From the IMG/VR virus record IMGVR_UViG_3300021431_000113, positions 12,167 through 76,166 of that record: DNA of 64,000 bases. The stretch is one strand, 5' to 3'. Numbering within the stretch: position 1 is the stretch's first letter; each line of letters opens with the position of its first letter. Under the pieces are notes generated by a model. It was not told the DNA's origin. It saw only the letters and a list, made by a program, of their open reading frames with translations, and made no database searches. The DNA is from a virus (taxonomy: Duplodnaviria > Caudoviricetes). Positions 500-14,626 of the stretch are shown here, piece by piece. Made by a program: the position numbers and the translations under genes.

Positions 500-504
500 G
501 CGGA

Positions 505-585
505 AGTTCGTCATTTTTTAACATACTTCTTAACCAATATTATAAATATATATTCGTTAAGAACTTTACAAGAAAATGACGAACT
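505..585. repeat. Nested inverted repeat with AT-rich core
   Basis: AGTTCGTCATTTT (505-517) / AAAATGACGAACT (573-585) enclose TTCTTAAC/GTTAAGAA and an almost pure A/T loop. Confidence 0.75.
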
Positions 586-673
586 CGAATTAAAATTTTT
601 GCAATAATACTAAAGTTCACTAAAATTTTAGGTGAAATTTAATAAAGTGCTATATAGTTTAAGAAAGGTGTAA

Positions 674-772
674 GTGGTTGAGGAACTTGAAATAAAAATT
701 GAGGAAATTCTAGCAAGATGGGAGATAGACGTGACCGACCTCCATCCCCTCAACCCTTCTCAACACGAATAA
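674..772 (+). CDS. Possible 32-aa small protein (MVEELEIKIEEILARWEIDVTDLHPLNPSQHE)
   Basis: RBS AAGAAAGGTG followed by GTG start and TAA stop; not in the ORF track. Confidence 0.3.
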   Translation: MVEELEIKIEEILARWEIDVTDLHPLNPSQHE

Positions 773-799
773 CGACCGTTAGCAACACCCGCATAAAAT

Positions 800-828
800 T
801 TGACAAATTTAAAAAATTATATTATAAT
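800..828 (+). promoter_or_regulatory. Consensus sigma-A promoter
   Basis: TTGACA(800-805)-N17-TATAAT(823-828). Confidence 0.85.
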
Positions 829-834
829 ATAATA

Positions 835-1187
835 AAGAAAATATAAAACGGTATAGTTTTAATTTCCGGCACTTCGTGCCTCCAATTAAAACTATACCTT
901 AGAGTGACTTCTTTTGTCGAGAGGTCTTTTTGACGTGGCCCGCTCCGGAACAACCAAGTTTCAGGTGCCTATGACGTTCTTTTGGTGAGCGTAATGCGAG
1001 CCGAATAACTGGAGCGGGATGCCATATCCTGCGTGGCGGACGCTCGCCGCCCGTTCAATCAACTACCCGCAAGAGGTCTATAAGTCAATCAACTATACCT
1101 ATTGTGCCTATGCGGGTTGGCGTTTAAGGTGGAGCGGAGGAAGTTCCTTTAGGTTTACATAATATTTTTATGTAAACCTTTTTTTTG
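835..1187 (+). ncRNA. GC-rich multi-hairpin non-coding element (ncRNA, primer RNA or single-strand origin candidate)
   Basis: No ORF. Stems GGTATAGTTTTAATT/AATTAAAACTATACC, CCCGCTCC/GGAGCGGG and GGCGG/CCGCC. Ends in a terminator hairpin with a U-tract. Confidence 0.5.
1151..1187 (+). terminator. Intrinsic terminator
   Basis: AGGTTTACAT/ATGTAAACCT stem followed by a T-run. Confidence 0.7.
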
Positions 1188-1310
1188 TGCAAAATGCACA
1201 AAATTTTGGGAAAATTTTAAAAAATTTTTGTGCAACTTTTTTAGAAAAAAATTTGACAATGCAGGAATTTTATGGTAGAATCGGGGCGCTTCGCAAGCTC
1301 GCGCGCCGGC
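1185..1310 (+). promoter_or_regulatory. Dyad/promoter module copy A (variant)
   Basis: TGCACAA (1195-1201), TTGTGCAA (1185, 1228), promoter TTGACA(1253)-N17-TAGAAT, then GC-rich sequence with GCCGGC. Confidence 0.65.
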
Positions 1311-1386
1311 AAATCTTTGTCAATAGGCAAAATTCACAAAAAATCAGCGCGAATCTGCTTATTTTTCAGCAAATTCGCGCATTTTT

Positions 1387-1764
1387 TCACTTTTTTGGGC
1401 GGTGTTTGGTCAATTTTATTGTATATTTCTCGTCAAAATAAGAAAAATACAGTTCTGTTTCAGTTTTTTGCCCAGTAATTACTACATTTTCATCATCAAA
1501 GAGCGCATCTTTAATAATTTGGAGCAAATCCGCCTTATTATAGTCAATTTTACGCTCTTTTTTAACATTTTTACGAGGGTTTGCACTCTTTTCATAGTGA
1601 CGTCCGCCCGCCTTAGCTTTCTTATCTATTTCCTCTTGTTCGGGGTTAGTCATTTTATCATTATCAGCAAGCCATAATTCACAAGCTTCAGCAAGGGAAA
1701 TATCAAGGTTATCCATGAGTTTATCAATCTCTTTATCAGGTATATCAAATCTATTATATTTCAT
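1387..1764 (-). CDS. Hypothetical early protein, paralog of 2120..2500
   Basis: Start re-assigned to MKYNRFDIP (RBS AGAGGAG, own promoter 1796-1824). Shares the KLTKHRPKK C-terminus with its neighbour. Confidence 0.85.
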   Translation of the reverse strand: MKYNRFDIPDKEIDKLMDNLDISLAEACELWLADNDKMTNPEQEEIDKKAKAGGRHYEKSANPRKNVKKERKIDYNKADLLQIIKDALFDDENVVITGQKTETELYFSYFDEKYTIKLTKHRPKK

Positions 1765-1917
1765 AAGTTTATCTCCTCTCTTACTTTCTATTGTTATTAT
1801 AGCATAGCGGTGTTGATTTGTCAACAAAAAAATAAATATCTTTGGTCTTTTCCATTTCTGCGGTTTTCTGTTAAATTTTAAACAGTCTACATAGTGTACG
1901 TTAAGCAAAATTAGAAA

Positions 1918-2037
1918 CGAAAAACCCTCAAAAATAGAGGACGGGTCTATTCTTGAGGGGGAGGACACAATCCGACAAAATGGATGGCGGCTGTGTTGAA
2001 CGACTTTTTTCGAGAAAGTATTTATTTTTTACTTTCT
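1918..2037 (-). ncRNA. Candidate ~120-nt sRNA with CCUCC motif
   Basis: Promoter 2044-2072, no RBS/ATG, terminator CCCTCAAGAATAGA...TCTATTTTTGAGGG plus U-tract. Confidence 0.45.
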
Positions 2038-2119
2038 ATAAATATTATACCAAAAAATTTTTTATTTGTCAACAATTATTTTTAGGGGCCGGCCGCAGTT
2101 AAGGGGGTCTAACGACCCC

Positions 2120-2500
2120 CTATTTTTTAGGGGGACGATGTTTTGTGAGTTTGAATGTGTAGGTTTCGCCCTCAAAAGTGAAAGTGGTTTCAGTTTCTGT
2201 CTTTCTGTTGACAACTACTGCGCCCAAATCTTCAACGAGTGCGCTCACTTCATCAAGAAAGAATTTTTTAGTTTCATCTACCTTACGAACCTTTTCAGTT
2301 TTTTTTCTATTGCCACTCTTTTCGTATCTGCGAGGAGCGTTCTTTTCGGCTTCTTTGATAGCCTTCTTTGTTTCTTCGCTTTCCTCTTGCTTTCCGCTTT
2401 CTTCAAGTATCAAATCACAAGCATCAGCAATTGAGCAACCGAGCTTTTCTACATACTCATCAATTTTATTATCGTCTACATCAAATCCGTTATATCTCAT
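2120..2500 (-). CDS. Hypothetical early protein, paralog of 1387..1764
   Basis: ORF with RBS and own promoter; clear end-to-end similarity to the downstream paralog. Confidence 0.85.
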   Translation of the reverse strand: MRYNGFDVDDNKIDEYVEKLGCSIADACDLILEESGKQEESEETKKAIKEAEKNAPRRYEKSGNRKKTEKVRKVDETKKFFLDEVSALVEDLGAVVVNRKTETETTFTFEGETYTFKLTKHRPPKK

Positions 2501-2556
2501 TTTGAGTACCTCTCTTTCATTTGATACTTATATTATACTACTTTGGGGTTGACTTG

Positions 2557-3261
2557 TCAACCCCTTTCATATAATTTTTTTCTCATAGGTTTATGTTTTC
2601 TAAAGCAATAAGCTAAAATTTCTTTTTCAATAAGTACATCTTCCAAACCTGTATGACTTTCAACAAAATCATAGTTACTACTTATATATTTATAGATAAC
2701 CTCAGCTTTTACTTGTGGTCTTGGTGTCTTATGCTTTGTCATATATCCATTTTCAAGACAAAATGCTTTATAGCTTGGAGTTTTTGCAACTACATCTAAA
2801 GCCATTTTCATAGTATCCCAAACTTCTGTGCCATATGGTAAAAAGTTTCTATACTTGGACTTTGTTAGCCATCTTTGAGTGTTTTTCGTTGCGCCATCAT
2901 CAAACCTTGCATTATGGGCGCATACTATTTTTGTATTGTATCTTTTCATCGTATCAGCAAGGTCTTTTCTAATTGTATACCATGTTGCAACCTTGCGCTT
3001 GCCACTCTTTATATCTTCCCAATATTTAGGAATTTTATTGCTATAATAAGCACTATTCATTAAAGTTTTTTCATCCATGAAAATGTCACGATTTATATAT
3101 GACTTTGTTTCGTAAACAGTACCTTTTTTATCAACAACCGCCCACCCAATGTCATATACGAACATATTGAATGGTGAAACACCCTCAAAGTCTTTATCAA
3201 GTGGACAAGTTTCTGTATCAAGTACAACGATGTAATGCTTTCTTCTGTCGATTTTTTCCAT
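2557..3261 (-). CDS. DEDDh (DnaQ-like) 3'-5' exonuclease
   Basis: ExoI VVLDTET, ExoII AHNARFD, ExoIII HTGLED motifs. Confidence 0.85.
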   Translation of the reverse strand: MEKIDRRKHYIVVLDTETCPLDKDFEGVSPFNMFVYDIGWAVVDKKGTVYETKSYINRDIFMDEKTLMNSAYYSNKIPKYWEDIKSGKRKVATWYTIRKDLADTMKRYNTKIVCAHNARFDDGATKNTQRWLTKSKYRNFLPYGTEVWDTMKMALDVVAKTPSYKAFCLENGYMTKHKTPRPQVKAEVIYKYISSNYDFVESHTGLEDVLIEKEILAYCFRKHKPMRKKLYERG

Positions 3262-3321
3262 TTTGTTAAACCCTCTTTTCTTTATTTGATATACTTATTG
3301 TATCATATCGCTTGGCATTTG

Positions 3322-3783
3322 TCAAGCGATATTTACAAGTTTTTCAATTTCTTTCATTATATTATAATTTGCATTGATTGTAGCACCCAATCTCCAACCT
3401 TTGCGCACCATTTCGTTATCATCAACTAAAACCTGATAACCACCAATTTTTCTTGTGCAATTTGCTTTAGTAGTTCCATATTTTACAAGATGGATTTCAT
3501 CATATGGAAAATTGTACTTTGCAAGCCAATCAAGTTTTGCTTTTCTTGTTCTGTTATTGTATTCTTTTGTACCATTCTTTGCAAGCCATGTTGTAACAAC
3601 TACTTTCCAACCTCTTATTTTAAGAGTATTGAGAAGATTTGCAAGTTCTACCATATTATAAAGTGGCTCTGCTACTTCATAAGGTGTGGTATCTTCGGCT
3701 TTAAGATAATCAAGCCAACCTTTTACACCATAGAAATTTGCGATTGTACCATCCATGTCAAATACGATTGTTTTATTTGCCAT
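3322..3783 (-). CDS. HAD-superfamily phosphatase (5'(3')-deoxyribonucleotidase-like)
   Basis: Motif I FDMDGT, motif II VVTT, motif IV LVDD. Start re-assigned to MANKTIV. Confidence 0.8.
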   Translation of the reverse strand: MANKTIVFDMDGTIANFYGVKGWLDYLKAEDTTPYEVAEPLYNMVELANLLNTLKIRGWKVVVTTWLAKNGTKEYNNRTRKAKLDWLAKYNFPYDEIHLVKYGTTKANCTRKIGGYQVLVDDNEMVRKGWRLGATINANYNIMKEIEKLVNIA

Positions 3784-3875
3784 AGCCTTTGTTCTCCTTT
3801 CCTTTACTGTAATTACATTATACAGTATAAGAATAGAAATGTCAACAAAAAAATAAAAAAAATCATAGGTAAAAA

Positions 3876-4022
3876 TGCACAAAGATCGGGTCCTGTTTTT
3901 GTGCAGTCTGACGGGCGGCCGGCGCAAAATTTTACGAAAGTCAATAGTAATATTGTACAAAAAAAGTATTTAATCCTTGTACAATATTCCGACTTGCAAA
4001 AAATAAAAATTTTTAGTATAAT
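3876..4022 (+). promoter_or_regulatory. Dyad/promoter module copy B (two dyads)
   Basis: TGCACAA-N16-TTGTGCA (3876-3905), GCCGGC (3918), TTGTACAA-N16-TTGTACAA (3953-3984), promoter TTGCAA-N17-TATAAT (3994-4022). Confidence 0.7.
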
Positions 4023-4027
4023 TATAT

Positions 4028-4135
4028 CAGAAAGTGAGAGAGAGATTAAAAAGAACTACAAATAGAGGTCGACAGTTTGGGCGCGCGAAACGGACTTTGG
4101 AATGAAAAAGGTAGTACACCTTAATCTCAAAAAAC
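4028..4135 (+). ncRNA. Candidate rod-like small RNA
   Basis: Downstream of a promoter, no ATG ORF. Nested stems GAGATTAA/TTAATCTC, ACTAC/GTAGT and GTTT/AAAC. Confidence 0.35.
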
Positions 4136-4235
4136 TTTAAAAAAATTAAATAAAGTGCTTGACAAAAAGCAAAAATTTTAGTATAATAAGTATGTAAAGT
4201 AAATCAAATAAATTTTAAGAAAGAGGTGTTCGTTT

Positions 4236-4589
4236 ATGACAAAGAGAGATGTTATTACAAAGGCAATTGCAACTGAGGGTGTTTTCACAGATGAGGAGAA
4301 GGCTGTTTTCCAGAAGATGCTCGAACAGCTTGACAAGAAGTCCTCAAAGCCTACAAAGGCACAGATTGAGAACGAGGGGTTTAAGGCTGACATCCTTGAG
4401 GTTGTAGCTGATGGTCATGCTCGCACAGCAAAGGAAATCGGTCTTGAGGTTGGTATCTCTACCAACAAGGCATCTGCTCTGCTTCGTGCGCTTGTTCTTG
4501 ATAACAAGGTGGAGAAGATTGCTCCCGAAAAGACAAAGGATGCTCCTACTTATGTGGGAGTTGAGGATGCTACACCTTACGAGGTGTAG
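4236..4589 (+). CDS. Winged-helix DNA-binding protein, paralog of 9426..9743
   Basis: TAKEIGLEVGISTNKASALLRALV HTH. Promoter 4159-4187 and RBS GAAAGAGG. Strong AAG/GAG codon bias. Confidence 0.8.
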   Translation: MTKRDVITKAIATEGVFTDEEKAVFQKMLEQLDKKSSKPTKAQIENEGFKADILEVVADGHARTAKEIGLEVGISTNKASALLRALVLDNKVEKIAPEKTKDAPTYVGVEDATPYEV

Positions 4590-4726
4590 TACTATCTAAC
4601 TAAAAAGTGTGGTTGATAGTTAGCAACTCTGCAAGGATAAAAAAACGCTCCTATAAGATAAAGTAGATAGCTTTGAGGCTTGTTTTAAACAAACTTGTTA
4701 CGGACTACTTTAAAAAACACTTAAAG

Positions 4727-4835
4727 TTGCACAAATTTCAGGAATGAGATTTGTGCAACTTTTTTATATTTTTTACTTGACAAAATGTGCGGCGAATGGT
4801 ATAATGGAATTTTGGGCTGGCGCGATCGCCAGCCC
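4727..4835 (+). promoter_or_regulatory. Dyad/promoter module copy C
   Basis: TTGCACAA-N16-TTGTGCAA (4727-4758), TTGACA(4777)-N17-TATAAT, hairpin GGGCTGGCG/CGCCAGCCC. Confidence 0.8.
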
Positions 4836-4841
4836 GCCGCC

Positions 4842-5069
4842 AAAAAGAAAAGAAGAACCTTTTTGAGGTTCTTCTTCCGATTGCGCAATCTCTCGTTTCG
4901 GTTTTGTTTTCGTATAACCTGAGGAAGAGTATCCCACTTTGAAGTGCGCCAGTATACCATTTTTTTAGTTTCCTATTGAACAAGAGTGAACACTGGATTT
5001 CTCTAAAGTCAACTGAATTCCGACCTTCAGTATGGGAGTTTTTTTAATGACTTTGCTTTGTCATTTTCT
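4842..5069 (-). ncRNA. Candidate ~220-nt non-coding transcript
   Basis: Promoter 5076-5104 and terminator AGAAGAACC/GGTTCTTCT plus U-run; no convincing ORF between them. Confidence 0.35.
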
Positions 5070-5111
5070 GTATTTATTATATCATAGTGCTTGACCGTTG
5101 TCAAGGGCTTT

Positions 5112-5315
5112 TTAAAAACTATCATAACCATAACTTTCTAAGCAACCGCACATGATTTTTAGTATAGGATGCTTACAAAGAAGACGGATTGTTTCAACTT
5201 TTTGTTGTGGAGTAAGTTCTAATCCCTCATCTATTTTTAACTGTTCTTCAAAATGATTCATTATTTCTTCTGTTGACATCATAGGAGAATCATTTGTTAA
5301 AACTAACTTATCCAT
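5112..5315 (-). CDS. Hypothetical early protein
   Basis: ORF with RBS AAGAGAGG and own promoter. Confidence 0.75.
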   Translation of the reverse strand: MDKLVLTNDSPMMSTEEIMNHFEEQLKIDEGLELTPQQKVETIRLLCKHPILKIMCGCLESYGYDSF

Positions 5316-5378
5316 TTTTGTACCTCTCTTTTATTTGATATATTTATTATATCATTTTAGGGGTTATTTGTCAACCCC

Positions 5379-5663
5379 CTAAATATCAACTTTTAAAAGT
5401 TTTAATGTTGCAATTATGCAACCCCACGCATTGTGTCCCATGTCATTAGGAATAGCATCCCAAACCTCGGGATAAATGCGTTTAATTCCAGTTAAAAGCA
5501 TTCCGCCCCAGTTACCGCCACAAGCTGAACAAATACTTAAAAATTCATCACAACTCATTTCATCCGTATCAGCTTTAAAACATTCAGTTACAACCTTTTC
5601 GCCATTTTTACCCCATTCTTTTGCAAGTAGACTCATACAATAAACAATATCTGCATAATCCAT
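5379..5663 (-). CDS. Hypothetical early protein
   Basis: ORF with RBS AAGGAG. Confidence 0.8.
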   Translation of the reverse strand: MDYADIVYCMSLLAKEWGKNGEKVVTECFKADTDEMSCDEFLSICSACGGNWGGMLLTGIKRIYPEVWDAIPNDMGHNAWGCIIATLKLLKVDI

Positions 5664-5667
5664 CTTA

Positions 5668-5859
5668 TTATCTCCTTTTTCCTTGTATTCTTACATCGTG
5701 AAAAACTACTCCACCAATTTCTGATGCGGCTTTATCAGCTTTGAATCCATCTTCATAAGCACCCCAAAACCAATATTCATTATCACGTTCTCTTGCTACT
5801 ACAAATTCATAGTCATTAGCATAATCAGGTTTATTATGAATTATTATTTTCTCTTTCAC
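5668..5859 (-). CDS. Hypothetical early protein
   Basis: GTG start after RBS GAAAGAGAGG, own promoter. Confidence 0.75.
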   Translation of the reverse strand: MKEKIIIHNKPDYANDYEFVVARERDNEYWFWGAYEDGFKADKAASEIGGVVFHDVRIQGKRR

Positions 5860-5897
5860 TTTGTTACCTCTCTTTCCTTTACTGTAATTAAAGTATA

Positions 5898-6071
5898 TCA
5901 CATCTCTTTTAGTTTGTCAAGCATTTTTTGCTCTCTTTTTTTATTTTTATATAATCTATTTTCTCTACACCATAGACAGGAACCATGATTTCTACAAGTG
6001 CAATCAATAGCTTTACTACCATAGTAAGGCTTTCTTTTTTCTTTTCCATACTTAATAGCTTTATCTAACAT
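5898..6071 (-). CDS. 57-aa basic Cys/His-rich protein (missed by ORF track)
   Basis: MLDKAIKYGKEKRKPYYGSKAIDCTCRNHGSCLWCRENRLYKNKKREQKMLDKLKEM; RBS AAGAGG and promoter upstream. Confidence 0.75.
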   Translation of the reverse strand: MLDKAIKYGKEKRKPYYGSKAIDCTCRNHGSCLWCRENRLYKNKKREQKMLDKLKEM

Positions 6072-6234
6072 AGTGCTTTACCTCTTTTCCTCTTCTTGTA
6101 ATTAAATTATATCATAAACAAGAGTAAAATGCAATACTAATTTTATTGTTTTTATGTTAAGATTCTGCGGCGGCCGGCGCGGTTAGAGGTCTTTAACGAC
6201 CTCTTCCGCCTACCAAGGAAACCAACCAATTTTC

Positions 6235-6486
6235 TTAATCATTTAAATCACTTCCTTCCTTTTTTTTATCTTCTATGTCTACAAGGTTTGCTATATTATC
6301 TAAGCTATAGCCTATTTCATCAATGTCATTATAAATCTTTGTTGCGTTGCCACTTGTCTCGTCAGCCTCTTCAAGCTCATCCCATATTTTATTCACAATT
6401 TTTTGTGCTGATACTAGAGTTTGAATTTCTTCGTTAGTAAGAGCAACTCCTGATACATATATTTTAGTTTCTTTTATTACTTTCAT
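6235..6486 (-). CDS. Hypothetical early protein
   Basis: ORF with RBS AAGGAG and own promoter. Confidence 0.75.
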   Translation of the reverse strand: MKVIKETKIYVSGVALTNEEIQTLVSAQKIVNKIWDELEEADETSGNATKIYNDIDEIGYSLDNIANLVDIEDKKKEGSDLND

Positions 6487-6555
6487 TTTTCATTACTCCT
6501 TTTCTCTTTTGATACATTTATTATACTATATTTGCGGTTGTTTGTCAAGAGTTTT

Positions 6556-6747
6556 TTACAAATAAATTTCTTTTTTTCGAGTGTCTATTTCAATAGTACC
6601 ACCTATTTTAGTATGACCATCATTTGAGGTTTGTATTTGTCCTAACCTAACACCATAATTTATATATCCGCTATCGTCCATTGTATAGACTTGATAATTT
6701 TCAATATTATTTTGACAACACCATTCATAAAGTTCTCTTACTGTCAT
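6556..6747 (-). CDS. Hypothetical early protein
   Basis: Start re-assigned to MTVRELYEW after RBS AAAGGTG. Confidence 0.75.
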   Translation of the reverse strand: MTVRELYEWCCQNNIENYQVYTMDDSGYINYGVRLGQIQTSNDGHTKIGGTIEIDTRKKEIYL

Positions 6748-6791
6748 TTCATCACCTTTTTTCTTTATTATATCATACTTTTGGGGGTATG

Positions 6792-7040
6792 TCAACCCCC
6801 ATAAAGTAGAATTAAGAAATAAATATTAAGTGCTACACTTGCAAGGTGCATTACAAGTCCGTTAATATGTCTATCCACCTTTAAATCTTTTATCGTACCA
6901 ATCAGCGCAACTGCTAAACCGAACCATGCAATCGACAGACCAAAAATCATAATCAGTACTACATTTATTACAGTTATTAAAGCACGAATGTCATTGTATT
7001 CAAGTCTAAATGGTTCTTCTATCTTGAAAAATTCTTTCAT
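6792..7040 (-). CDS. Small membrane protein (2-3 TM)
   Basis: Hydrophobic stretches ALITVINVVLIMIFGLSIAWFGLAVALIG and LVMHLASVALNIYFLILLY. Confidence 0.75.
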   Translation of the reverse strand: MKEFFKIEEPFRLEYNDIRALITVINVVLIMIFGLSIAWFGLAVALIGTIKDLKVDRHINGLVMHLASVALNIYFLILLYGG

Positions 7041-7160
7041 CTTTTGTTCTCCTTTCCTTTACTGTAATTACATTATAGCATAAGTAACTTTATTTGTCAA
7101 CAACTTTTTATTTTTTTAGGGCGGCCGGCGCTTTGAGGTGCCACGAGGACACCTTTCGCG

Positions 7161-7382
7161 CTAAACATTCCAATCATAATTTTCACGTAATTCTTCCCAA
7201 GTTACACAACTATCTGTAAAGCAATATTCATTAGGAAAATTAGAATAAAGCTCATCAAGAGCATCAAAAAATTTTTTGAGTGCTTTATCATATGCTTGTC
7301 TTTCACGCTTTTCGAGTTCTCTATCAACATTAGCTTTTAAAGTTACAAGTTCGTTTACACTCATCTTTTCAAAATCTGTCAT
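7161..7382 (-). CDS. Hypothetical early protein
   Basis: ORF with RBS AAGGAG. Confidence 0.75.
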   Translation of the reverse strand: MTDFEKMSVNELVTLKANVDRELEKRERQAYDKALKKFFDALDELYSNFPNEYCFTDSCVTWEELRENYDWNV

Positions 7383-7388
7383 TATTTA

Positions 7389-7643
7389 TCACTCCTTTTC
7401 TATAATAGTTGGTGCTTCATTTACTATATCTTCTAAACCATCGCCATCATAATCTGTTATCCACTCTTTGTCTATTAATTCATGTTTTAAAACATCAGCA
7501 TCAATCAACCTTCCGTGCCCTTTCGGAAGTGGTGTGCCATTTTGAATTGCCTTAATATAACAAAACACACCTTCGGGATAGGATGGTCTCATCTTCAAAT
7601 AATTTTGGTATTCTTCCTCAGGTATCTCAATCACTATCTTCAT
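7389..7643 (-). CDS. Hypothetical phage protein
   Basis: ORF with RBS and promoter; NGTPLPKGHGRLIDAD motif recalled from other phage small proteins. Confidence 0.75.
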   Translation of the reverse strand: MKIVIEIPEEEYQNYLKMRPSYPEGVFCYIKAIQNGTPLPKGHGRLIDADVLKHELIDKEWITDYDGDGLEDIVNEAPTIIEKE

Positions 7644-7699
7644 CAGCTTTTACCTCTTTTCTTTTGATAAATCTATTATATCATAGGGTTGACGATTTG

Positions 7700-8197
7700 T
7701 CAACCCTCAATTAGTCCATTTTTTACATACATTTGTATAAGTGCTGTTTGAAGTTCTGTCCAAAACTTTTTTATTTTTCTTGGATGATTTGTCATGTACT
7801 CGCCAGCCCATCTTGTAGCCATGAATTCATCGGGGCATACATGATACCATGCGTTCATTTCATTTTCATCGACATCAGCTTCACAAATAATATCTTTTTG
7901 ATAATTAAAATATTCTCTTTCTTCATCTGTCCACATATCCTCTGTCATGCAATGACCGATTTCGTGCATCAGTGCCCAAAGGAAAATATCAGCATTTATA
8001 TTAGGATACCTTTTAATTGCATCCTCGATAAACTGCCCCTCTCCATTTTCAGTAGCAAGGAAAGTGTAACCAATCAATCTTCTACCATTGTCGCAAAAAG
8101 CTTCAAATTCAGTATCAAATCTAGCAGTAACTCCAAAATTCTTCTTTGTGAAGTTGTTTATTATTTTATCTACTTTTTTTATTCCTTTTACTTTCAT
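7700..8197 (-). CDS. HExxH putative metallopeptidase-like protein
   Basis: ALMHEIGH motif and downstream EFMATRWA. Confidence 0.6.
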   Translation of the reverse strand: MKVKGIKKVDKIINNFTKKNFGVTARFDTEFEAFCDNGRRLIGYTFLATENGEGQFIEDAIKRYPNINADIFLWALMHEIGHCMTEDMWTDEEREYFNYQKDIICEADVDENEMNAWYHVCPDEFMATRWAGEYMTNHPRKIKKFWTELQTALIQMYVKNGLIEG

Positions 8198-8311
8198 ATT
8201 TCTTACCTCTTTCCTTTTTTGTAATTACATTATAGCAGATTTGATTCTATTTGTCAACTACTTTTTTGAGGGGGCCGGCGGTCAAGGACGCCTTAGGCAT
8301 CCTTTCCGCAA

Positions 8312-8491
8312 TTAAGGTTTAAGTGCATAGCCACCTGTTTTTCTCCAGAAGTTAATCAACTTTTCATTAGCCTTGTCTGCAACTTCATCAACCATTGGAA
8401 CATACTTTACTTCATTGATACCAACCGCCTTAGCTTCCTTGTAGTTTGCAGTTTCCTTATTATCTCTTGTTACATAAACGACCTTGTTCAT
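8312..8491 (-). CDS. 59-aa protein (missed by ORF track)
   Basis: MNKVVYVTRDNKETANYKEAKAVGINEVKYVPMVDEVADKANEKLINFWRKTGGYALKP; RBS GAAAGAGAGG and promoter. Confidence 0.75.
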   Translation of the reverse strand: MNKVVYVTRDNKETANYKEAKAVGINEVKYVPMVDEVADKANEKLINFWRKTGGYALKP

Positions 8492-8533
8492 AGTGATTAC
8501 CTCTCTTTCATTTTCTATATTTATTATACCATG

Positions 8534-8761
8534 CTAAATGGTGTTTGTCAAGGGGTTTTTTATGTTTTTAACAAATTTTTCCCTCATTATTTCATCCCAC
8601 CACTTGCCAAGTTCATCATTATTTTCATAAAAACCCGAACCCATGACAAGCGCATAACAATAGGTATAGTAAAATTCAAAGTTTGATTTATTCTTTGTTT
8701 TTACGCAATACTCAAAATCTTTTTCAATTTCTTTCTTAATTCTCTCTTGTGTATTAGACAT
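8534..8761 (-). CDS. Hypothetical early protein
   Basis: Start re-assigned to MSNTQERIK, overlapping the upstream stop. Confidence 0.65.
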   Translation of the reverse strand: MSNTQERIKKEIEKDFEYCVKTKNKSNFEFYYTYCYALVMGSGFYENNDELGKWWDEIMREKFVKNIKNPLTNTI

Positions 8762-8954
8762 TTTTAACCACCAAAACCCTTTCTTCAAGACCATCGTTGC
8801 TCTTGATATACATTTCAAATGTATCTTCAAAAACCTGACCAAGTTTCATGTTGATAACTTGTGGGCTGTTCTCCATCATCTCGAAGAAAAGCCTTGCAGT
8901 CATGAAAGTGTTATTATTTGCTTTTAACCAATTTTTAATTTCCCAAGTATACAT
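8754..8954 (-). CDS. Hypothetical early protein
   Basis: ORF with RBS AAAGGAG and promoter. Confidence 0.75.
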   Translation of the reverse strand: MYTWEIKNWLKANNNTFMTARLFFEMMENSPQVINMKLGQVFEDTFEMYIKSNDGLEERVLVVKNV

Positions 8955-8984
8955 AAGCTTTTCTCCTTTCCTTTTTGTAATTAA

Positions 8985-9080
8985 ATTATAGCAAAATTTA
9001 TTAAAAATGTCAAGTATACAAATTGCACAAAATTAGCGGGTGCGGTTTGTGCAATTTTTTGTGCCGGCGCCAAAATTTTC
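8985..9080. promoter_or_regulatory. Dyad/promoter module copy D (no complete rightward promoter)
   Basis: Leftward -35 at 9008-9013, TTGCACAA-N16-TTGTGCAA (9023-9054), GCCGGC (9063). Confidence 0.75.
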
Positions 9081-9168
9081 AGTTTGTCAAGTCTTTTTTT
9101 AAAAAAGAAATAGGGCGCCACTTGGGCGCCCATAGGAAAGGAGGATTTTCAATTTTTATCTGTTTGAG

Positions 9169-9259
9169 TAGGGTAGGAAGGAGTTGCACCCCCACCATTT
9201 AATCATGGTTGCTATTTTACACAGCTTTGACTTGCTTTTGGTAAAATTCCATCTACCCC
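9169..9259 (-). tRNA. Degenerate tRNA-Leu(UAA)-like element
   Basis: Acceptor GGGGTAG/CTACCCT plus A73, T arm GGGGG-TGCAACT-CCTTC, long variable arm and anticodon loop TGTAAAA. The D-arm region is abnormal. Confidence 0.4.
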
Positions 9260-9261
9260 TT

Positions 9262-9420
9262 ATTTATCGCCTTTCGCATTAAGAATTTCAAGACGCATCT
9301 TTACTTTTCACTTATCCGAAGATAATTGTCTTTCATTGGACTATCCGAAGAATACCAAAGGGCATAATCTTTTATTTACTATCAACCCCCTAGCCCCATT
9401 GACTAGGGGGAGTAACTTCG
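9262..9420 (-). ncRNA. Structured RNA / 3' UTR with two UUCG hairpins
   Basis: TTATC-TTCG-GATAA, TATTC-TTCG-GATA, CCCCTAG/CTAGGGG and closing TTATGCC/GGCGATAA stems. Confidence 0.4.
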
Positions 9421-9425
9421 CAAGA

Positions 9426-9743
9426 CTATTCAGCCTTGCGATACTTTGGAGCATCTTTAGACTTCTCTCCAGGTATCTTCTCGATACCATCCATAGCTCT
9501 TAAAAGAGCGGCTACCTTGTTAGTTGTAAGACCTACACCATCAGCAATCTGACGAGCAGTCTGTGGCTCTGTACCGAGGTATTCAGCAATCTGAGCCTTG
9601 TATCCCTCATTTTCAACCTGAGCCTTAGTTGGCTTACTTGACTTCTTATCCAGAGAAGCTATAATCTTATCAGCAACCTCTCTCATTTCATCTGTACAAC
9701 CCTCAAGTTCCTTAACTGCTACACAAAATTCTCTCTTTGTCAT
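9426..9743 (-). CDS. Winged-helix DNA-binding protein, paralog of 4236..4589
   Basis: Shared SSKPTKAQ.ENEG.KA and TA..I...VG..TNK..ALLRA motifs; three tandem upstream promoters. Confidence 0.8.
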   Translation of the reverse strand: MTKREFCVAVKELEGCTDEMREVADKIIASLDKKSSKPTKAQVENEGYKAQIAEYLGTEPQTARQIADGVGLTTNKVAALLRAMDGIEKIPGEKSKDAPKYRKAE

Positions 9744-9995
9744 AGATTTGCACCTCTTTCTTTTTTATATTTTTTATTTTTTACAAGTTTATTATAACAA
9801 ATTTTTTAGTGTTTGTCAAGCACTTTTTTAACTTTTTTAGAAAATTTTCAGTACTGTTGGCTGAGAACCGATTTCCTTATTCATTTTCTATATTTATTAT
9901 AGCACTTTTTATTTTATTTGTCAAGCACTTTTTTTAAGGTTTTGAAATTGTTTTCAGCCGCTTGGTCTGTTATCTTTCCTTACCTTGTAAATACA

Positions 9996-10145
9996 TTATA
10001 GCAAAAATTCTTTTGTATGTCAAGCACAAATTTTGGGAAGATCTTTGTGCAATTTGCACAACAAAAAATACTTGACAAAATGGCGCTGGATGTGGTATAA
10101 TGGAATTTTGGCGCGCGGACGAGGTGTGCCGGACGTCCGCGCGCC
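9996..10145. promoter_or_regulatory. Dyad/promoter module copy E
   Basis: Leftward promoter, AAGCACAA-N15-TTGTGCAA plus an extra TTGCACAA, rightward TTGACA(10072)-N18-TATAAT and a 12-bp GC hairpin. Confidence 0.8.
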
Positions 10146-10168
10146 ATTCACAAAAATAAGGGGTATTT

Positions 10169-10393
10169 CTACCCCTCCTCTTCATATGCGGTAACGATTT
10201 TGCCAAACAGAGTACATATCCTCTGCCACTCACTTTCATCATGAGCAATGAACTCATAATCTTCTTCCGTGGCGCAATCAGGCACCCCAACCGCAATCCA
10301 ATCTTCCCACGCAACTTCATCTCCGATTGTATTACATACATAGTCATTCATCTGCTTAAGGAGTTTTATTCTCTCGTCATAGATATTTGCCAT
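10169..10393 (-). CDS. Hypothetical acidic early protein
   Basis: ORF with RBS AAGGGG and promoter. Confidence 0.75.
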   Translation of the reverse strand: MANIYDERIKLLKQMNDYVCNTIGDEVAWEDWIAVGVPDCATEEDYEFIAHDESEWQRICTLFGKIVTAYEEEG

Positions 10394-10438
10394 ATTTTAT
10401 CCCCTTTCTTATTTTCTATACATATTATATCATTATAT

Positions 10439-10618
10439 TTACTTTTTGTCAATAGTTTTTTTCAGAATCTCTTTATAATAATAATCGACTATATCTTTAT
10501 ATGTATATTTACCATCATTATTAAGACTAATATACATAAGTTTTAACATAAGAACCCTATGATCATTTTCACCATATTTCTTTATTGCTTTTGTTATCAT
10601 ACTTGAAATTGGCGGCAT
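10439..10618 (-). CDS. Hypothetical early protein
   Basis: Start re-assigned to MPPISS after RBS GAGGGAG. Confidence 0.6.
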   Translation of the reverse strand: MPPISSMITKAIKKYGENDHRVLMLKLMYISLNNDGKYTYKDIVDYYYKEILKKTIDKK

Positions 10619-10622
10619 ATAA

Positions 10623-10799
10623 TCACTCCCTCTCCCACTCTTCAAAAACTTCTGCATATTCAAGGTCTACGATTTCAACTCGATTTGCCCATTCCATAAA
10701 TTCTTTAAATTTTTCATATGCAGTTGTTATTTCATCTACGTGTTCTGTGTATGTACCTACTGTGCTATATCCTACTACATCATATCCATATCCGTTCAT
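10623..10799 (-). CDS. Hypothetical acidic early protein
   Basis: Start MNGYGYD after RBS GAAAGAGAGG. Confidence 0.75.
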   Translation of the reverse strand: MNGYGYDVVGYSTVGTYTEHVDEITTAYEKFKEFMEWANRVEIVDLEYAEVFEEWERE

Positions 10800-10878
10800 A
10801 TTGTTACCTCTCTTTCCTTTTCTATATATATTATAGCAAATTTTCAAATAATTGTCAAGAATTTTTTTATATTACTTG

Positions 10879-11337
10879 CTAGGCTGTTAACCTAGCAAGT
10901 GTCTTTTCGTTTGTAAATGTTGCACCCTGGTATTTTATCTGATATGCAACTCCATCAACTGTGAGGTCGCCGTCTATAGTGAAAGGAACGCTATCCTTTG
11001 TCCAAGTCTGTCCAACCTTTTCGGTTTCCATTTTCTCATAAACTTCGCCTTTGTTGTAGTGTGTATTTGCTACAGTTTCAAGGAAGAACTTTTCGCTACA
11101 AACAACCTCAGCACCAAGAGCTATAAGGTAAAGTTTCTGTTCATTAGTAGGCTTGAATCTTAATGCATATCCCTGTCCACGGCTAGCCTTGTCAAGCTTG
11201 AGGATATATGGCAGAACCTCTGCATTAGTCTTTACGCTATATACATTACCTTTATAAGCAAAACCAAAGATATATTCATGTGTATATGCAAGCCTATTGT
11301 ATTCGTTGATTAAATGGTTAAATAATGTAGTATTCAT
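10879..11337 (-). CDS. Hypothetical early protein (possible PD-(D/E)xK-like C-terminus)
   Basis: ORF with RBS and promoter; DGDLTVDGVAYQIK resembles a nuclease D...QxK motif (weak). Confidence 0.7.
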   Translation of the reverse strand: MNTTLFNHLINEYNRLAYTHEYIFGFAYKGNVYSVKTNAEVLPYILKLDKASRGQGYALRFKPTNEQKLYLIALGAEVVCSEKFFLETVANTHYNKGEVYEKMETEKVGQTWTKDSVPFTIDGDLTVDGVAYQIKYQGATFTNEKTLARLTA

Positions 11338-11370
11338 AAGGTGTTCCCCTTTCCTTTATCTTATGTACCC

Positions 11371-11566
11371 ATTATACACCCTAAGCCGGCGGTTGTCAAG
11401 CAAAAAATTGCACAAAATGAAAAAAATTTTTTGTGCAAAGTGCTGAATTTCGGGATGACAGAATTTTAACATAAATAACAGAAATTTGCTATTGACAAAC
11501 CTGACTCATGTGTGGTATAATATTGCGGCGCACTGACGAGGAGTGTGATTGTCAGCGCGCCGCCCA
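11371..11566. promoter_or_regulatory. Dyad/promoter module copy F
   Basis: Leftward -35 11394-11399, 8-bp gap, TTGCACAA-N15-TTGTGCAA (11408-11438), rightward TTGACA(11492)-N18-TATAAT and a GC hairpin. Confidence 0.8.
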
Positions 11567-11634
11567 AATAAAAAAGAGCAGAAATACTCTGCTCTTATTA
11601 TACCATAAACGGTTGACTTTGTCAACCCTTATGT

Positions 11635-11905
11635 GGATTTTTTTGAGTGACTGCCAAGTCCAAACCTCTTTCCCGCTCCTCACGGTACTCATCACTCTGA
11701 GGGCTTTGTGCCTACTTATTTCAGTGCTACTGTTCTTCACAACTGCCCCATGTGGGTTACACGGCTGAAGGTGTTCCTCTTGTATTAACGGCTCACTCTT
11801 TAAAGGCTTTACACCTCAACTTGCGAGGATTTATTACCTACCGACCTTTCTGCTTGGAGAGGCTTAATACGCCGTGGGTTTGGTGGGTTTTCCTTCCCTT
11901 ACTGT
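11635..11905 (-). ncRNA. Candidate ~270-nt structured ncRNA
   Basis: Own promoter (11912-11940), no credible ORF. Long-range pairings CACGGC/GCCGTG, GTATTAA/TTAATAC, AAAGG/CCTTT, CCTC/GAGG and GAGTGA/TCACTC. Confidence 0.55.
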
Positions 11906-11911
11906 ATCTTT

Positions 11912-12234
11912 ATTATATCATAGGGGTTGAGGTTTGTCAACCCCCTTTTTTAAAAATCTTTACCTTCATATGAATGTGTTAGACACTTAAAAAATGTTTT
12001 TAAGTTTATAATAAGTTGAAGATTAAGAGCCATTTCAATAGTGTAAACACAATTTGGTTCACAATACCAAGAAGGTAACTGAGGCTTTTTCCCAAAATGA
12101 TAATAAGTAAATTGAGTTTTAGTTGCCATTGTTTCATTGGATATAATCCAAATTGTTTTATATAACATTTTTGTTTCCTCTCTTTTCCTTTTGATGATTT
12201 AATTATATCATAGGGGTTGAGGTTTGTCAACCCC
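11912..12234. repeat. 33-bp identical direct repeats (promoter copies) flanking one gene
   Basis: ATTATATCATAGGGGTTGAGGTTTGTCAACCCC at 11912-11944 and 12202-12234. Confidence 0.9.
11950..12168 (-). CDS. Hypothetical early protein
   Basis: ORF with RBS AAGAGAGG and own promoter. Confidence 0.65.
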   Translation of the reverse strand: MLYKTIWIISNETMATKTQFTYYHFGKKPQLPSWYCEPNCVYTIEMALNLQLIINLKTFFKCLTHSYEGKDF

Positions 12235-12400
12235 TTATCTGAATATTTTTCAAAATTTTTTGAACTTCTTTAAGCTCTTCTTTGGTCATTGCGTATCCTT
12301 CTTCTGCGTAATAGCCAGCGACTATTTGAGTAATAGTATAAGCGTTATCTTTAATTGCTTCCTCGACATCAAACTTAATTGTATTAATTGTATTTTCCAT
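12227..12400 (-). CDS. 57-aa protein (missed by ORF track)
   Basis: MENTINTIKFDVEEAIKDNAYTITQIVAGYYAEEGYAMTKEELKEVQKILKNIQIRG; RBS GAAAGAGAGG. Confidence 0.75.
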   Translation of the reverse strand: MENTINTIKFDVEEAIKDNAYTITQIVAGYYAEEGYAMTKEELKEVQKILKNIQIRG

Positions 12401-12434
12401 TTTCAGTTCCTCTCTTTCTTTATCTTATGTATAC

Positions 12435-12591
12435 ATTATAGCACGTTAAAGCCGGTCTGTCAACTAAAATTTTGCACAATTTGGGAGTTAATTATTTGTG
12501 TAATTTTGCGCGATTTTGTTCTTGACAAGTCCATGGCTCATATGTTATAATTTTTCGGATAGAAATCGGGCGCGCCGATTAAAGCGCGCCC
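12435..12591. promoter_or_regulatory. Dyad/promoter module copy G
   Basis: Leftward -35 12458-12463, 8-bp gap, TTGCACAA-N16-TTGTGTAA (12472-12503), 18-bp gap, TTGACA(12522)-N18-TATAAT and a GC hairpin. Confidence 0.8.
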
Positions 12592-12629
12592 ATAGGAAAG
12601 GAGGATTTTGCAGATTCTAGCTATTTGAT

Positions 12630-12701
12630 TGCGCCGCACGGGAATCGAACCCGCGTTGACTCGATTAAAAGTCGAGTGCATAACCATTCTGCCAACGGCG
12701 C
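12630..12701 (-). tRNA. tRNA-Lys(UUU), CCA not encoded
   Basis: Cloverleaf: acceptor GCGCCGT/GCGGCGC, D arm GCA/TGC, anticodon stem CTCGA/TCGAG with loop CTTTTAA, T arm GCGGG-TTCGATT-CCCGT. Confidence 0.92.
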
Positions 12702-12703
12702 AT

Positions 12704-12907
12704 TTATTCTTTTATGTAAACTTTTCCCTCTGCATTATATCTGCATTTAGGGTGTGTTATCATGAACTCACATCTATTATGGAAGCGCTCGCGCTTAACC
12801 TTGTCATGCTGTTCAATTACTATCATTACTATTGTCATTATTGCAAGTATTCCAAGCAGGATAAATCCGATAATCATTTCGTTCATTTTAAAACCCTCAT
12901 TTCTCAT
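12704..12907 (-). CDS. Small single-TM membrane protein
   Basis: IIGFILLGILAIMTIVMIVI; RBS GAGGG. Confidence 0.7.
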   Translation of the reverse strand: MRNEGFKMNEMIIGFILLGILAIMTIVMIVIEQHDKVKRERFHNRCEFMITHPKCRYNAEGKVYIKE

Positions 12908-12959
12908 TTTCTATATTTATTATAGCAAATTTTTTATTATTTGTCAAGAACTTTTTTTT

Positions 12960-13092
12960 GAGATTTCTCTCTGTAAGGTCTCCGTTGGTAGTTAGCTTCT
13001 TTCTGAATCCGACCCCGTCCAAGCCGAACCCCTACTTTCACTAGCTAGAGCAACTATCTCACTGAAAGGTTTCTGCCTTACTTCCCTTTCTG
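12960..13092 (-). ncRNA. Candidate ~130-nt rod-like RNA
   Basis: Promoter 13100-13128, no start codon after the RBS-like leader. Closing stems GTAAGG/CCTTAC and AGTTGCT/AGCTAACT. Confidence 0.4.
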
Positions 13093-13099
13093 TAATTAT

Positions 13100-13262
13100 A
13101 ATATACCACATCTTCCTACAGAAGTCAAGTAAAATATTGCACAAAATTATAGGATGAAATTTGTACAGTTTGTACAACAAAAAACACTTGACAAATTTGC
13201 CGACCTGTGATATAATGAAATCGCGGCAGGCTCGCGACAAGGACGCCCGCGAGCCTGCCGCC
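13100..13262. promoter_or_regulatory. Dyad/promoter module copy H
   Basis: Leftward -35 13123-13128, 8-bp gap, TTGCACAA-N16-TTGTACAG (13137-13168), TTGACA(13188)-N17-TATAAT, hairpin GCGGCAGGCTCGCG/CGCGAGCCTGCCGC. Confidence 0.8.
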
Positions 13263-13274
13263 AACTAAAAAGGT

Positions 13275-13583
13275 CTAGCAGTAAGCTAGACCCATGTCAC
13301 GCCATCTCAGAACGCTTATCTGATTGCATGCTCTGCCAATTTCCATCGCTTCGCGCTTTGTGTTAACTCTGTGGCTAAGGTCTATATAATAGACACCATC
13401 TGCAAACCAGATTCCGCAGTTTCCGCCATATGCTTTTATCATCTGCATAGCTTCGCGAATATCTGTAGTTTCTTTTCCCTCTGTTGCTACTTGCCAACCG
13501 GTTTTATATACTATAGGCTTGCCATTTTTAAGAGTAAGTCCACCATTGTTTGTTATCTTTTTAAGTGTTCTTATATTTATCAT
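13275..13583 (-). CDS. Hypothetical early protein
   Basis: ORF with RBS GAAAGAGAGG and promoter. Confidence 0.8.
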   Translation of the reverse strand: MINIRTLKKITNNGGLTLKNGKPIVYKTGWQVATEGKETTDIREAMQMIKAYGGNCGIWFADGVYYIDLSHRVNTKREAMEIGRACNQISVLRWRDMGLAYC

Positions 13584-13674
13584 TTTGAGTTCCTCTCTTT
13601 CCTTTATCTTATGTATACATTATAGCATTTTTGATCCGGTTTGTCAACACTTTTTTTAAATATTTCTTTGAGGT

Positions 13675-13842
13675 TTAACCCTCAAAGAAATATTGATTTT
13701 CTGCGTTCATGATAATAATTTCTCTAATGTTGAAAAGTGCTTTTTCTTTTCTGTAAAAGTCAAATACTGCGCAAGCCTGATGTCTATTTGTTGTTGCAAG
13801 TATTGTATCTCCATTGATTATTACTTCATAAGTTCCGTTCAT
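13675..13842 (-). CDS. Hypothetical early protein
   Basis: Start re-assigned to MNGTYEV after RBS GGGTGG. Confidence 0.65.
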   Translation of the reverse strand: MNGTYEVIINGDTILATTNRHQACAVFDFYRKEKALFNIREIIIMNAENQYFFEG

Positions 13843-13894
13843 GTTATCCACCCTATCCCCTCTTTTAGGGGTTCCTTTCCTTTTTTCTGATTTA

Positions 13895-14022
13895 ATAATA
13901 TCATTTTTTCTAGTATTTGTCAAGCAAAATTTTGCACAAAAAACACAAATTTTATGAATTTATTTTTGTGCAATTTTTTATCATTTTTCTACTTGACAAA
14001 TGCCGTTCTCATGTGGTATAAT
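13895..14022. promoter_or_regulatory. Dyad/promoter module copy I
   Basis: Leftward -35 13918-13923, 8-bp gap, TTGCACAA (13932) ... TTGTGCAA (13966-13973), 19-bp gap, TTGACA(13993)-N18-TATAAT. Confidence 0.75.
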
Positions 14023-14103
14023 ATTTCGACACTGAAGCGGAAACGACGCTCTAACCGGTAAAAAGCTTGCCTTGTGGTGATTCAAGGCAAGCTTTCCGCA
14101 TTT

Positions 14104-14355
14104 TTAATATATTTTTATGAAGTTATTTCTGCAAATTCTGTAACCATCTTTATAGTTTCTATCATAAGTTCTAGCTTTTTTCGGTTCGAGTGCAACTTCT
14201 TCATTTGTTATCATGTTGATTATTTTTACTTCATAATTTTCATCTTTATTATTTCTTGCTATCATTCTAGCAATTTCGATGAACTCTTCATTTTCTACTA
14301 TTGTTGTTACTTCTTTAGTTTCTTTATTTATTTTGATTACTTTGTATTTTCTCAT
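14104..14355 (-). CDS. Hypothetical early protein
   Basis: ORF with RBS GAAAGAGAGG and promoter. Confidence 0.7.
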   Translation of the reverse strand: MRKYKVIKINKETKEVTTIVENEEFIEIARMIARNNKDENYEVKIINMITNEEVALEPKKARTYDRNYKDGYRICRNNFIKIY

Positions 14356-14461
14356 TTTGTTTTCCTCTCTTTCCTTTTTCTTGTCTTTATTATAGCATCT
14401 AGAGAGTTAATTGTCAAGCACTTCTTAAAAAATTTTTTTATTTTTTTGTATGTAGTTAGCC

Positions 14462-14626
14462 TTAGTTAACTACATACATTTTATCATTCATGTTATCCTT
14501 TATTGTAACAACTCCGTCAGTAACCTTTGCCATACCTTTAGCTACTTCCATAGCATCATTATAATCGTTATAACTTTCTACCTTAGTTCCCTCTGTTGTT
14601 CTTACTGTTACCATGTATCTTCTCAT
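14462..14626 (-). CDS. 54-aa protein (missed by ORF track)
   Basis: MRRYMVTVRTTEGTKVESYNDYNDAMEVAKGMAKVTDGVVTIKDNMNDKMYVVN; promoter 14677-14705. Confidence 0.7.
   Translation of the reverse strand: MRRYMVTVRTTEGTKVESYNDYNDAMEVAKGMAKVTDGVVTIKDNMNDKMYVVN

Follow-up and report, generated by a model that had tools for sequence, protein, structure and literature searches.

A helically phased 32-bp dyad at the early promoters of a large rumen phage, shared with Clostridia chromosomes and probably the operator of a host regulator

The early region and its dyad modules

The window considered here is a stretch of 64,000 nucleotides, bases 12167-76166 of the virus record IMGVR_UViG_3300021431_000113 (Duplodnaviria; Caudoviricetes), itself a single phage contig of 76,166 bp with a GC content of 32.5%, and the element in question is a dyad of about 32 bp that recurs beside the promoters of its early region. 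The phage is a member of a clade of large (130-180 kb) phages of Clostridia, from rumen, and because relatives that are complete with terminal repeats have these sizes, the record is probably a fragment. The window encodes a 2854-aa tape-measure protein and a PolC-like DNA polymerase, and a late block on the plus strand begins at 16113. The early region (1-15000) consists of small genes on the minus strand, nearly every one of them preceded by its own TTGACA-N17-TATAAT promoter. Relatives of the structural protein at 17334-18587 are found on 425 IMG/VR contigs, the terminase-like protein is nearest to those of large Firmicutes siphoviruses (such as Geobacillus E3, Enterococcus phages and SPbeta-like phages, 32-46% identity), and a megablast search of the early region against GenBank phages gave zero matches. 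An Rfam search returned a tRNA-Lys gene as its sole match.

Ten modules of the form TTGCACAA-N15/16 (or N26)-TTGTGCAA lie within 1185-13973 (Table 1). Every copy listed by the initial annotation is in place, and the repeat stands clear of shuffled sequence: the exact dyad occurs three times, against none in 100 shuffles, and a search allowing up to two mismatches and spacings of N15, N16, N25 or N26 found 12 dyads, which make up the ten modules and all fall within 1001-15000, whereas Markov-1 simulations of the same search gave 0.03 on average and never more than 1. Each of the remaining spacings from N5 to N40 gave zero or one match. The exact 8-mer is present 17 times in the 76-kb genome, for 2.9 expected, and 15 of the 17 lie between positions 1185 and 14798 of the window. 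The dyads at 1194, 3875, 3953, 10022, 12472 and 13137 depart from the exact arms by one or two mismatches. A third box is present in three modules, at 1 bp from an arm, and in the module at 10022-10061, whose left arm overlaps a minus-strand -35 box (10018-10023), the last 17 bp (10045-10061) are a perfect palindrome. The arms had been described as conserved and the spacers as unconserved; this holds for the arms and in part only for the spacers, where the base adjoining each arm is A or T (TTGCACAAA...TTTGTGCAA) and ATTTTGGGA is common to several copies.

The modules keep a fixed geometry with respect to the flanking sigma-A-type promoters. Four copies (11408, 12472, 13137 and 13932) have a leftward -35 box 8 bp from the left arm and a fifth (9023) has it at 9 bp, exactly as first annotated; on the other side, 17-19 bp separate the right arm from a rightward TTGACA, a distance that had been noted in five copies and is found in six (right arms at 1228, 4751, 10045, 12496, 13161 and 13966). 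Assuming that transcription starts 7 nt after the -10 box, the promoter coordinates place the dyad centre at about -59.5 of the leftward and about -70.5 of the rightward promoter, and relatives show a further class at about -80.5. The leftward promoters head minus-strand operons. The seven dyad-adjoining plus-strand promoters run into a GC-rich hairpin with no open reading frame (ORF), and are convergent with the minus-strand operons; five loci of relatives have the same promoter-into-hairpin arrangement beside their dyads.

Table 1. Dyad modules, adjoining promoters and other features of the early region (window positions unless marked otherwise)
Feature	Position	Strand	Remarks
Three-box module TTGTGCAA-A-ATGCACAA, N26, TTGTGCAA	1185-1235 (dyad 1194-1235; third box with adjoining arm 1185-1201)		Right arm 17 bp from -35 at 1253
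Dyad variant ATGCACAA-N16-TTGTGCAG	3875-3906		29 bp from minus-strand -35 at 3845
Dyad variant TTGTACAA-N16-TTGTACAA	3953-3984		9 bp from -35-like TTGCAA at 3994; upstream of the gene at 4236-4589
Exact dyad, N16	4727-4758		18 bp from plus-strand -35 at 4777
Exact dyad, N16	9023-9054		9 bp from minus-strand -35 at 9013; no plus-strand promoter after it
Three-box module AAGCACAA-N15-TTGTGCAA-T-TTGCACAA	10022-10061 (dyad 10022-10052)		Middle box 19 bp from plus-strand -35 at 10072
Exact dyad, N15	11408-11438		8 bp from minus-strand -35 at 11399; plus-strand -35 53 bp off
Dyad TTGCACAA-N16-TTGTGTAA	12472-12503		8 bp from minus-strand -35 (12463), 18 bp from plus-strand -35 (12522)
Three-box module TTGCACAA-N16-TTGTACAG-T-TTGTACAA	13137-13177 (dyad 13137-13168; third box with adjoining arm 13161-13177)		8 bp from minus-strand -35 (13128); middle box 19 bp from plus-strand -35 (13188)
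Exact arms, N26	13932-13973		8 bp from minus-strand -35 (13923), 19 bp from plus-strand -35 (13993)
Sigma-A-type promoter TTGACA-N17-TAGAAT	1253-1281	+	Adjoins dyad; promoter and GC-rich hairpin 1253-1330
Consensus promoter, without ORF	4777-4805	+	Adjoins dyad; promoter and GC-rich hairpin 4777-4840
Consensus promoter, 18-bp spacer, TGn -10	10072-10101	+	Promoter and GC-rich hairpin 10072-10150
Consensus promoter, 18-bp spacer	11492-11521	+	Promoter and GC-rich hairpin 11492-11565
Consensus promoter, 18-bp spacer	12522-12551	+	Promoter and GC-rich hairpin 12522-12590
Consensus promoter	13188-13216	+	Promoter and GC-rich hairpin 13188-13265
Consensus promoter, 18-bp spacer	13993-14022	+	Promoter and GC-rich hairpin 13993-14100
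First promoter of minus-strand early operon	8985-9013	-	9 bp from dyad
Operon-leading promoter	11371-11399	-	8 bp from dyad
Operon-leading promoter	12435-12463	-	8 bp from dyad
Promoter TTGACT / TATATT	13100-13128	-	8 bp from dyad
Promoter	13895-13923	-	8 bp from dyad
Winged helix-turn-helix (wHTH) paralog 1	4236-4589	+	wHTH fold, AlphaFold2 (AF2) pLDDT 85.6
wHTH paralog 2	9426-9743	-	Paralogy to wHTH paralog 1
Two more wHTH paralogs (locus L373)	G000 5434-5841 and 5965-6345		Left of window
tRNA-Lys gene	12629-12702	-	Rfam

The dyad in related phages and in Clostridia chromosomes

A scan of IMG/VR with the exact pattern found at least 118 contigs carrying the dyad, 37 of which share proteins with this phage. 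Among 23 related records searched, 15 hold 11-36 boxes each, against 0-2 for the reversed pattern, and six of ten complete or near-complete relatives have a clear excess (12-55). The comparison covered an unbiased set of relatives as well as whole records. In the box-rich complete genomes the boxes are concentrated mostly in one or two regions of 15-25 kb. Conservation extends to distant phages for the arms but not for the spacers, and the conservation of spacing expected from the initial annotation is seen at two levels. Summed over seven phage genomes, the distance between arms is N15 in six cases, N16 in 24, N25 in three, N26 in 14, N27 in one and something else in three, that is, two classes (N15/16 and N25/26) that differ by 10 bp, or one helical turn. 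The distance between an arm and an outward exact TTGACA, taken over 91 dyads, is 8-9 bp in 39 cases, 17-19 bp in 25 and 28-30 bp in ten, a phasing of about 8, 18 and 29 bp. The early region itself is mosaic among relatives in gene content and order, while the promoter modules recur.

Six relatives have box counts at chance level. The box-poor relatives have plain AT-rich sequence upstream of their early promoters, and a replacement dyad of the same geometry was sought in them and not found. Some of them have over-represented words of other kinds, such as TGCGGAA and CTTTACA-TGTAAAG.

The dyad is also a motif of bacterial chromosomes. We scanned one genome per prokaryote species for the module dyad-N17-19-TTGACA and obtained 41 contigs, nearly all from Clostridia assemblies (Oscillospiraceae, Ruminococcus, Acutalibacteraceae, Lachnospiraceae, Oscillibacter). 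About 11 of them belong to the phage clade, and about 30, some with 55-62% GC, lack any gene of the clade. In the latter, the genes 3' of the module include tRNA genes and those for an HPr-like protein, ATP synthase subunit a and sugar ABC ATPases, and the module is also found before small regulators of other mobile elements. At ten loci of such elements the same dyad lies upstream of the first small regulator gene, and the dyad-bearing elements carry XRE or ribbon-helix-helix genes, a PIN toxin, or a serine recombinase.

Counts in whole host-type genomes, for which the reversed pattern served as the control, point the same way. With up to two mismatches, the N16 dyad occurs 18 times (control 0), 12 (2), 11 (1), 5 (1) and 4 (0) in five such genomes, the 18 being in a Ruminococcus genome of 1.8 Mb, and the sites are scattered over many contigs. 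An even sample of 301 genomes of the class holds 86 N16 dyads with at most one mismatch, distributed over 57 genomes, against three for the control. When the spacing was left free between N5 and N35 in five host genomes, 28 of 36 sites had N16, and the control gave one match. Most of the inspected host sites (47 of 58) fall outside open frames of 150 aa or more. They take the form TTGCACAA(A)-N14/16-(T)TTGTGCAA and stand in the promoter regions of genes that are highly expressed or serve in carbon use, at distances from the -35 box that include 8 and 18-19 bp. Neighbours that recur across species are MsmX-type ATPases, sugar-binding lipoproteins, a phosphotransferase system component, phosphoenolpyruvate carboxykinase, alcohol dehydrogenase, a hydrogenase subunit, NrdD and many surface proteins with signal peptides.

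Candidate readers of the dyad

The element behaves like the site of a DNA-binding protein, dimeric or tetrameric, between back-to-back sigma-A promoters, as first proposed; the arms, their spacing and the phasing support this part of the proposal at the level of sequence. Two spacing classes 10 bp apart suggest two DNA-binding units on one face of the helix, in a protein that would be flexible or oligomeric, and since the dyad is phased to the -35 boxes, the putative bound protein would act on the polymerase at both flanking promoters. Because the dyad is a motif of Clostridia chromosomes, a host protein is its likelier reader. We therefore regard the dyad as the probable operator of a host transcription factor with a broad regulon, which is the most economical reading; the phage would carry it upstream of its sigma-A promoters, at positions in helical phase with them. 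The putative host is probably one of the gut or rumen Clostridia, Oscillospirales or Ruminococcus-like.

The phage clade would have placed some ten copies of this operator at the heads of its minus-strand early operons, each between a leftward promoter that expresses genes and a rightward promoter that yields only a hairpin. Both positions of the dyad centre would present the same face of the helix, one turn apart, as for a factor of class-I type that touches RNA polymerase. A host-encoded protein bound there would modulate the polymerase at both promoters, by activating it or by holding it, and early phage transcription would thereby be tied to the physiological state of the host. Replication of the phage might, as a side effect, titrate the factor away from host genes. 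Box-poor relatives would be phages of hosts that lack it.

A wider proposal, on which our judgement is evenly balanced, is that gut and rumen Clostridia (Oscillospirales and some Lachnospirales) have an undescribed global regulator, whose 32-bp operator TTGCACAAA-N14-TTTGTGCAA controls the promoters of tRNA, ATP synthase, sugar-uptake, central-carbon and surface-protein genes. Large lytic phages and other mobile elements would have captured phased copies of the operator to plug their first promoters into this regulator, and possibly to drain it. Regulation is almost unmapped in these uncultured and poorly studied Clostridia, which dominate rumen and gut. The operator is sharply defined, with dozens of near-exact copies and a coherent set of targets, its phased geometry gives clear predictions, and a 32-bp oligonucleotide would be a simple bait for its protein. 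The dyad also provides a signature by which a large family of metagenomic phages can be connected with a group of hosts.

Several observations weigh against a host operator. The linked promoters already have consensus sequences (TTGACA-17/18-TATAAT), so that activation is not obviously needed, and whether the polymerase would be activated or held cannot be read from the sequence for the same reason. In two species, the orthologous promoter of a sugar-binding protein has its -35 box inside the dyad and its -10 box directly next to it, which is the position of a repressor. Some of the matches counted as host sites sit in other mobile elements, and one of them is a 33-nt CRISPR spacer in an array of 50 repeats (locus G226:C1:837216-840247) from a Clostridia genome of 55% GC; this spacer has no match among the phage genomes compared in this analysis, and its presence means that this host once sampled a dyad-bearing mobile element. 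The host of the phage is taken solely from the taxonomy of the assemblies that hold related contigs, and no binding protein emerged from the analysis. Finally, N26 is frequent in phages and rare in hosts, which have almost solely N16, and this leaves room for a different or additional reader made by the phage.

Such a reader is the best of the alternatives, if an unlikely one. In this view, a wHTH paralog or some other small protein of the early region would act as a switch of the early operons by binding at the dyads, like p4 in phi29, and an unrelated host factor, mimicked or displaced, would read the host sites. This fragment encodes four paralogs of one small wHTH family of the phage clade, for which there is no Pfam model. 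In the AF2 model, two helices at the N-terminus are followed by a basic, Lys-rich linker and, at the C-terminus, a winged helix; the predicted structure matches MarR/ArsR/Z-alpha folds, and the profile matches the winged helices of Hop2, BlaI and MecI weakly (E values of 1e-3 to 1e-2). If the linker is flexible, it would suit N16 and N26 alike. These are the sole recognisable DNA-binding folds among some 30 early proteins; Pfam searches of about 30 others found no DNA-binding family. By BLASTP, the type of paralog 1 is one of three families present in all six box-rich and none of the four box-poor genomes, but this profile is confounded by phylogeny. The family as a whole occurs in 28 of 29 related phage records, at 2-5 copies each, including phages without boxes; its recognition-helix residues are much alike in box-rich and box-poor phages; and its tree has one universal clade and lineage-specific expansions, with no box-specific orthologue. 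Nor was a homologue found in host genomes with 11-18 dyads, where two weak matches to the profile were rejected as ArsR/SdpR-type repressors. The suggestion of the initial annotation that the two wHTH paralogs of the window bind the dyad is thus not supported.

It is less probable still, and in our view improbable, that the array is mainly a decoy, which would soak up a host factor after genome replication and so shut down or derepress host genes, its effect on phage promoters being secondary. The numbers would allow it, with at least ten near-consensus sites per phage genome for some 10-20 per host chromosome, and seven of the sites are tied to promoters that yield only hairpin RNA. Yet a pure decoy needs no fixed phase to the -35 box, and the phasing at 8, 18 and 29 bp is the strongest feature of the element; moreover, the sites head real early operons.

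We give very little credence to a site that works without a transcription factor, be it a recombination site at cassette boundaries, as the initial annotation had offered as an alternative, or a hairpin signal in DNA or RNA: the modules do bound operons that differ in content and order between relatives while being themselves repeated, much as PeSL cassettes of T4-type phages (PMC2839356), and the arms could pair as an 8-bp stem, but no recombinase is linked to the sites, such a stem with a loop of 16-26 nt is weak, spacing classes 10 bp apart and phasing to promoter -35 boxes belong to double-stranded DNA of which a single face is read, and the same site precedes host core genes. The sequence gives no sign of a dedicated recombination site. 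Homologous exchange at the repeats is plausible as a by-product, given the mosaic early region, the recurrence of the promoter modules and the likeness to PeSL cassettes; the repeated modules may thus favour the shuffling of cassettes by homologous recombination.

The known regulators that were compared do not supply the host factor. The dyad fits none of the consensus sequences with which we compared it, namely the 0A box (TGTCGAA) and those generally given for Rex, CcpA (cre), CodY, BirA and NtrC, and the BirA box was set aside as unfit in sequence or orientation. A DeoR regulator beside an exact host dyad was rejected: other dyads do not have it as a neighbour, and one of the site-rich genomes lacks it. 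A promoter for another sigma factor was set aside because no -10-like element stands at a fixed distance inside the dyad, and a sigma-54 enhancer because the sites adjoin sigma-A promoters and no -24/-12 element was seen by eye (no scan was run). Literature searches with the motif strings returned only primers, eukaryotic C/EBP-type matches and the PhaR box of alpha-proteobacteria, in agreement with the initial annotation, which knew of no description of the element.

Known systems and further features of the phage

The closest parallel to a host operator in the phage is that of phi29, in which the phage is repressed in cells that sporulate, through Spo0A boxes near its early and late promoters (PMC2731898). 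In both cases, sites for a global regulator of the host, here putative, lie near back-to-back sigma-A promoters of a Firmicutes phage and across the host chromosome, and would couple phage development to the state of the host, as proposed here. Host chromosomes, too, have an excess of the motif at their promoters relative to reversed-pattern controls. The two differ in that phi29 has six TGTCGAA boxes that overlap core promoters to repress them (PMC2731898), whereas here 32-bp dyads are phased upstream of the -35 box. If our reading is right, this would be a second and much larger case of a Firmicutes phage with early promoters wired to a host regulator.

The sites of the phi29 protein p4, 5'-CTTTTT-N15-AAAATG-3' (PMC3100819), resemble the dyad in having short inverted arms about 15 bp apart between divergent promoters, in that case early and late, and in being read by a dimer that affects both promoters at once. 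The sequence differs from this consensus, with its three A-tracts. Moreover, p4 is encoded by the phage, its sites are private to it, and their arms are A-tracts of which one base is read directly, whereas here each arm is made up of 8-9 specific bases and host genomes have the site as well. At the promoter A2c, p4 holds the polymerase. Class I activators offer another model of placement: CRP acts at -61.5, -72.5 and -82.5, and site I of Fis lies at -71 of rrnB P1. The dyad centres at about -59.5, -70.5 and -80.5 form a similar one-turn series upstream of the -35 box, and the host targets likewise include tRNA and other highly expressed genes, but the dyad-linked promoters are consensus rather than weak, and contact with RNA polymerase is here only proposed.

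PeSL cassettes combine a strong sigma-70-like promoter with stem-loops (PMC2839356, PMC4122927), and a repeated strong sigma-70-like promoter with a stem-loop is what we find in the hyperplastic region of this phage. In both, repeated small regulatory modules are interspersed in a hyperplastic early region, among small orphan genes that are ordered differently in relatives. PeSLs differ by having neither an upstream operator dyad nor a counterpart at host genes. As for the two spacings, the K-boxes of ComK and the operators of CytR have half-sites that tolerate distances differing by whole helical turns. The N16 and N26 classes, 10 bp apart, resemble them in logic only, sequences and organisms being different. 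The Rex operator is an 18-bp palindrome, TTGTGAA-N4-TTCACAA, in which TTGTG and CACAA are 8 bp apart. It was rejected because the everted form found here is of 17 bp (TTGTG-N7-CACAA) and, in the main form, the order of the arms is reversed and 16 bp lie between them. The PhaR/AniA box YGCRNYGCR, for example TTGTGCAcTGCACAA, has two TGCA-type cores 1 bp apart and belongs to proteobacteria that make polyhydroxybutyrate (PMC12542648); it was rejected because in the present element 20 or 30 bp separate the cores, and because the hosts belong to another class.

Other repeated elements of the phage deserve mention. A second class of promoters has a conserved AT-rich spacer, TTGACAAAAATAAAAAATTTTGATATAAT, with -35 boxes at 800, 2072, 4159, 16119, 16135, 32475, 54115 and 63056, and TTGCAA variants of it lie left of the window; these promoters may form a set under separate regulation. 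A run of 10-bp repeats of GTTA/TAAC type occupies 14815-14964, at the boundary between early and late regions. GC-rich words of GGCCGGCG type occur at 2089, 3918, 6170, 7120, 8272, 9063 and 11385, just 3' of minus-strand stop codons and upstream of the next promoter, and in a relative of 180 kb GCCCGGGC words adjoin the boxes. Four minus-strand stretches from promoter to terminator (4860-5070, 9140-9420, 11570-11905 and 12960-13100) have no convincing ORF and match no Rfam family at the gathering score; they may be phage non-coding RNAs. Finally, an identical 21-nt word, cccataggaaaggaggatttt, is present at 9121-9141 and 12587-12607, each time beside a GC-rich terminator hairpin, one of which comes after the tRNA-Lys gene.

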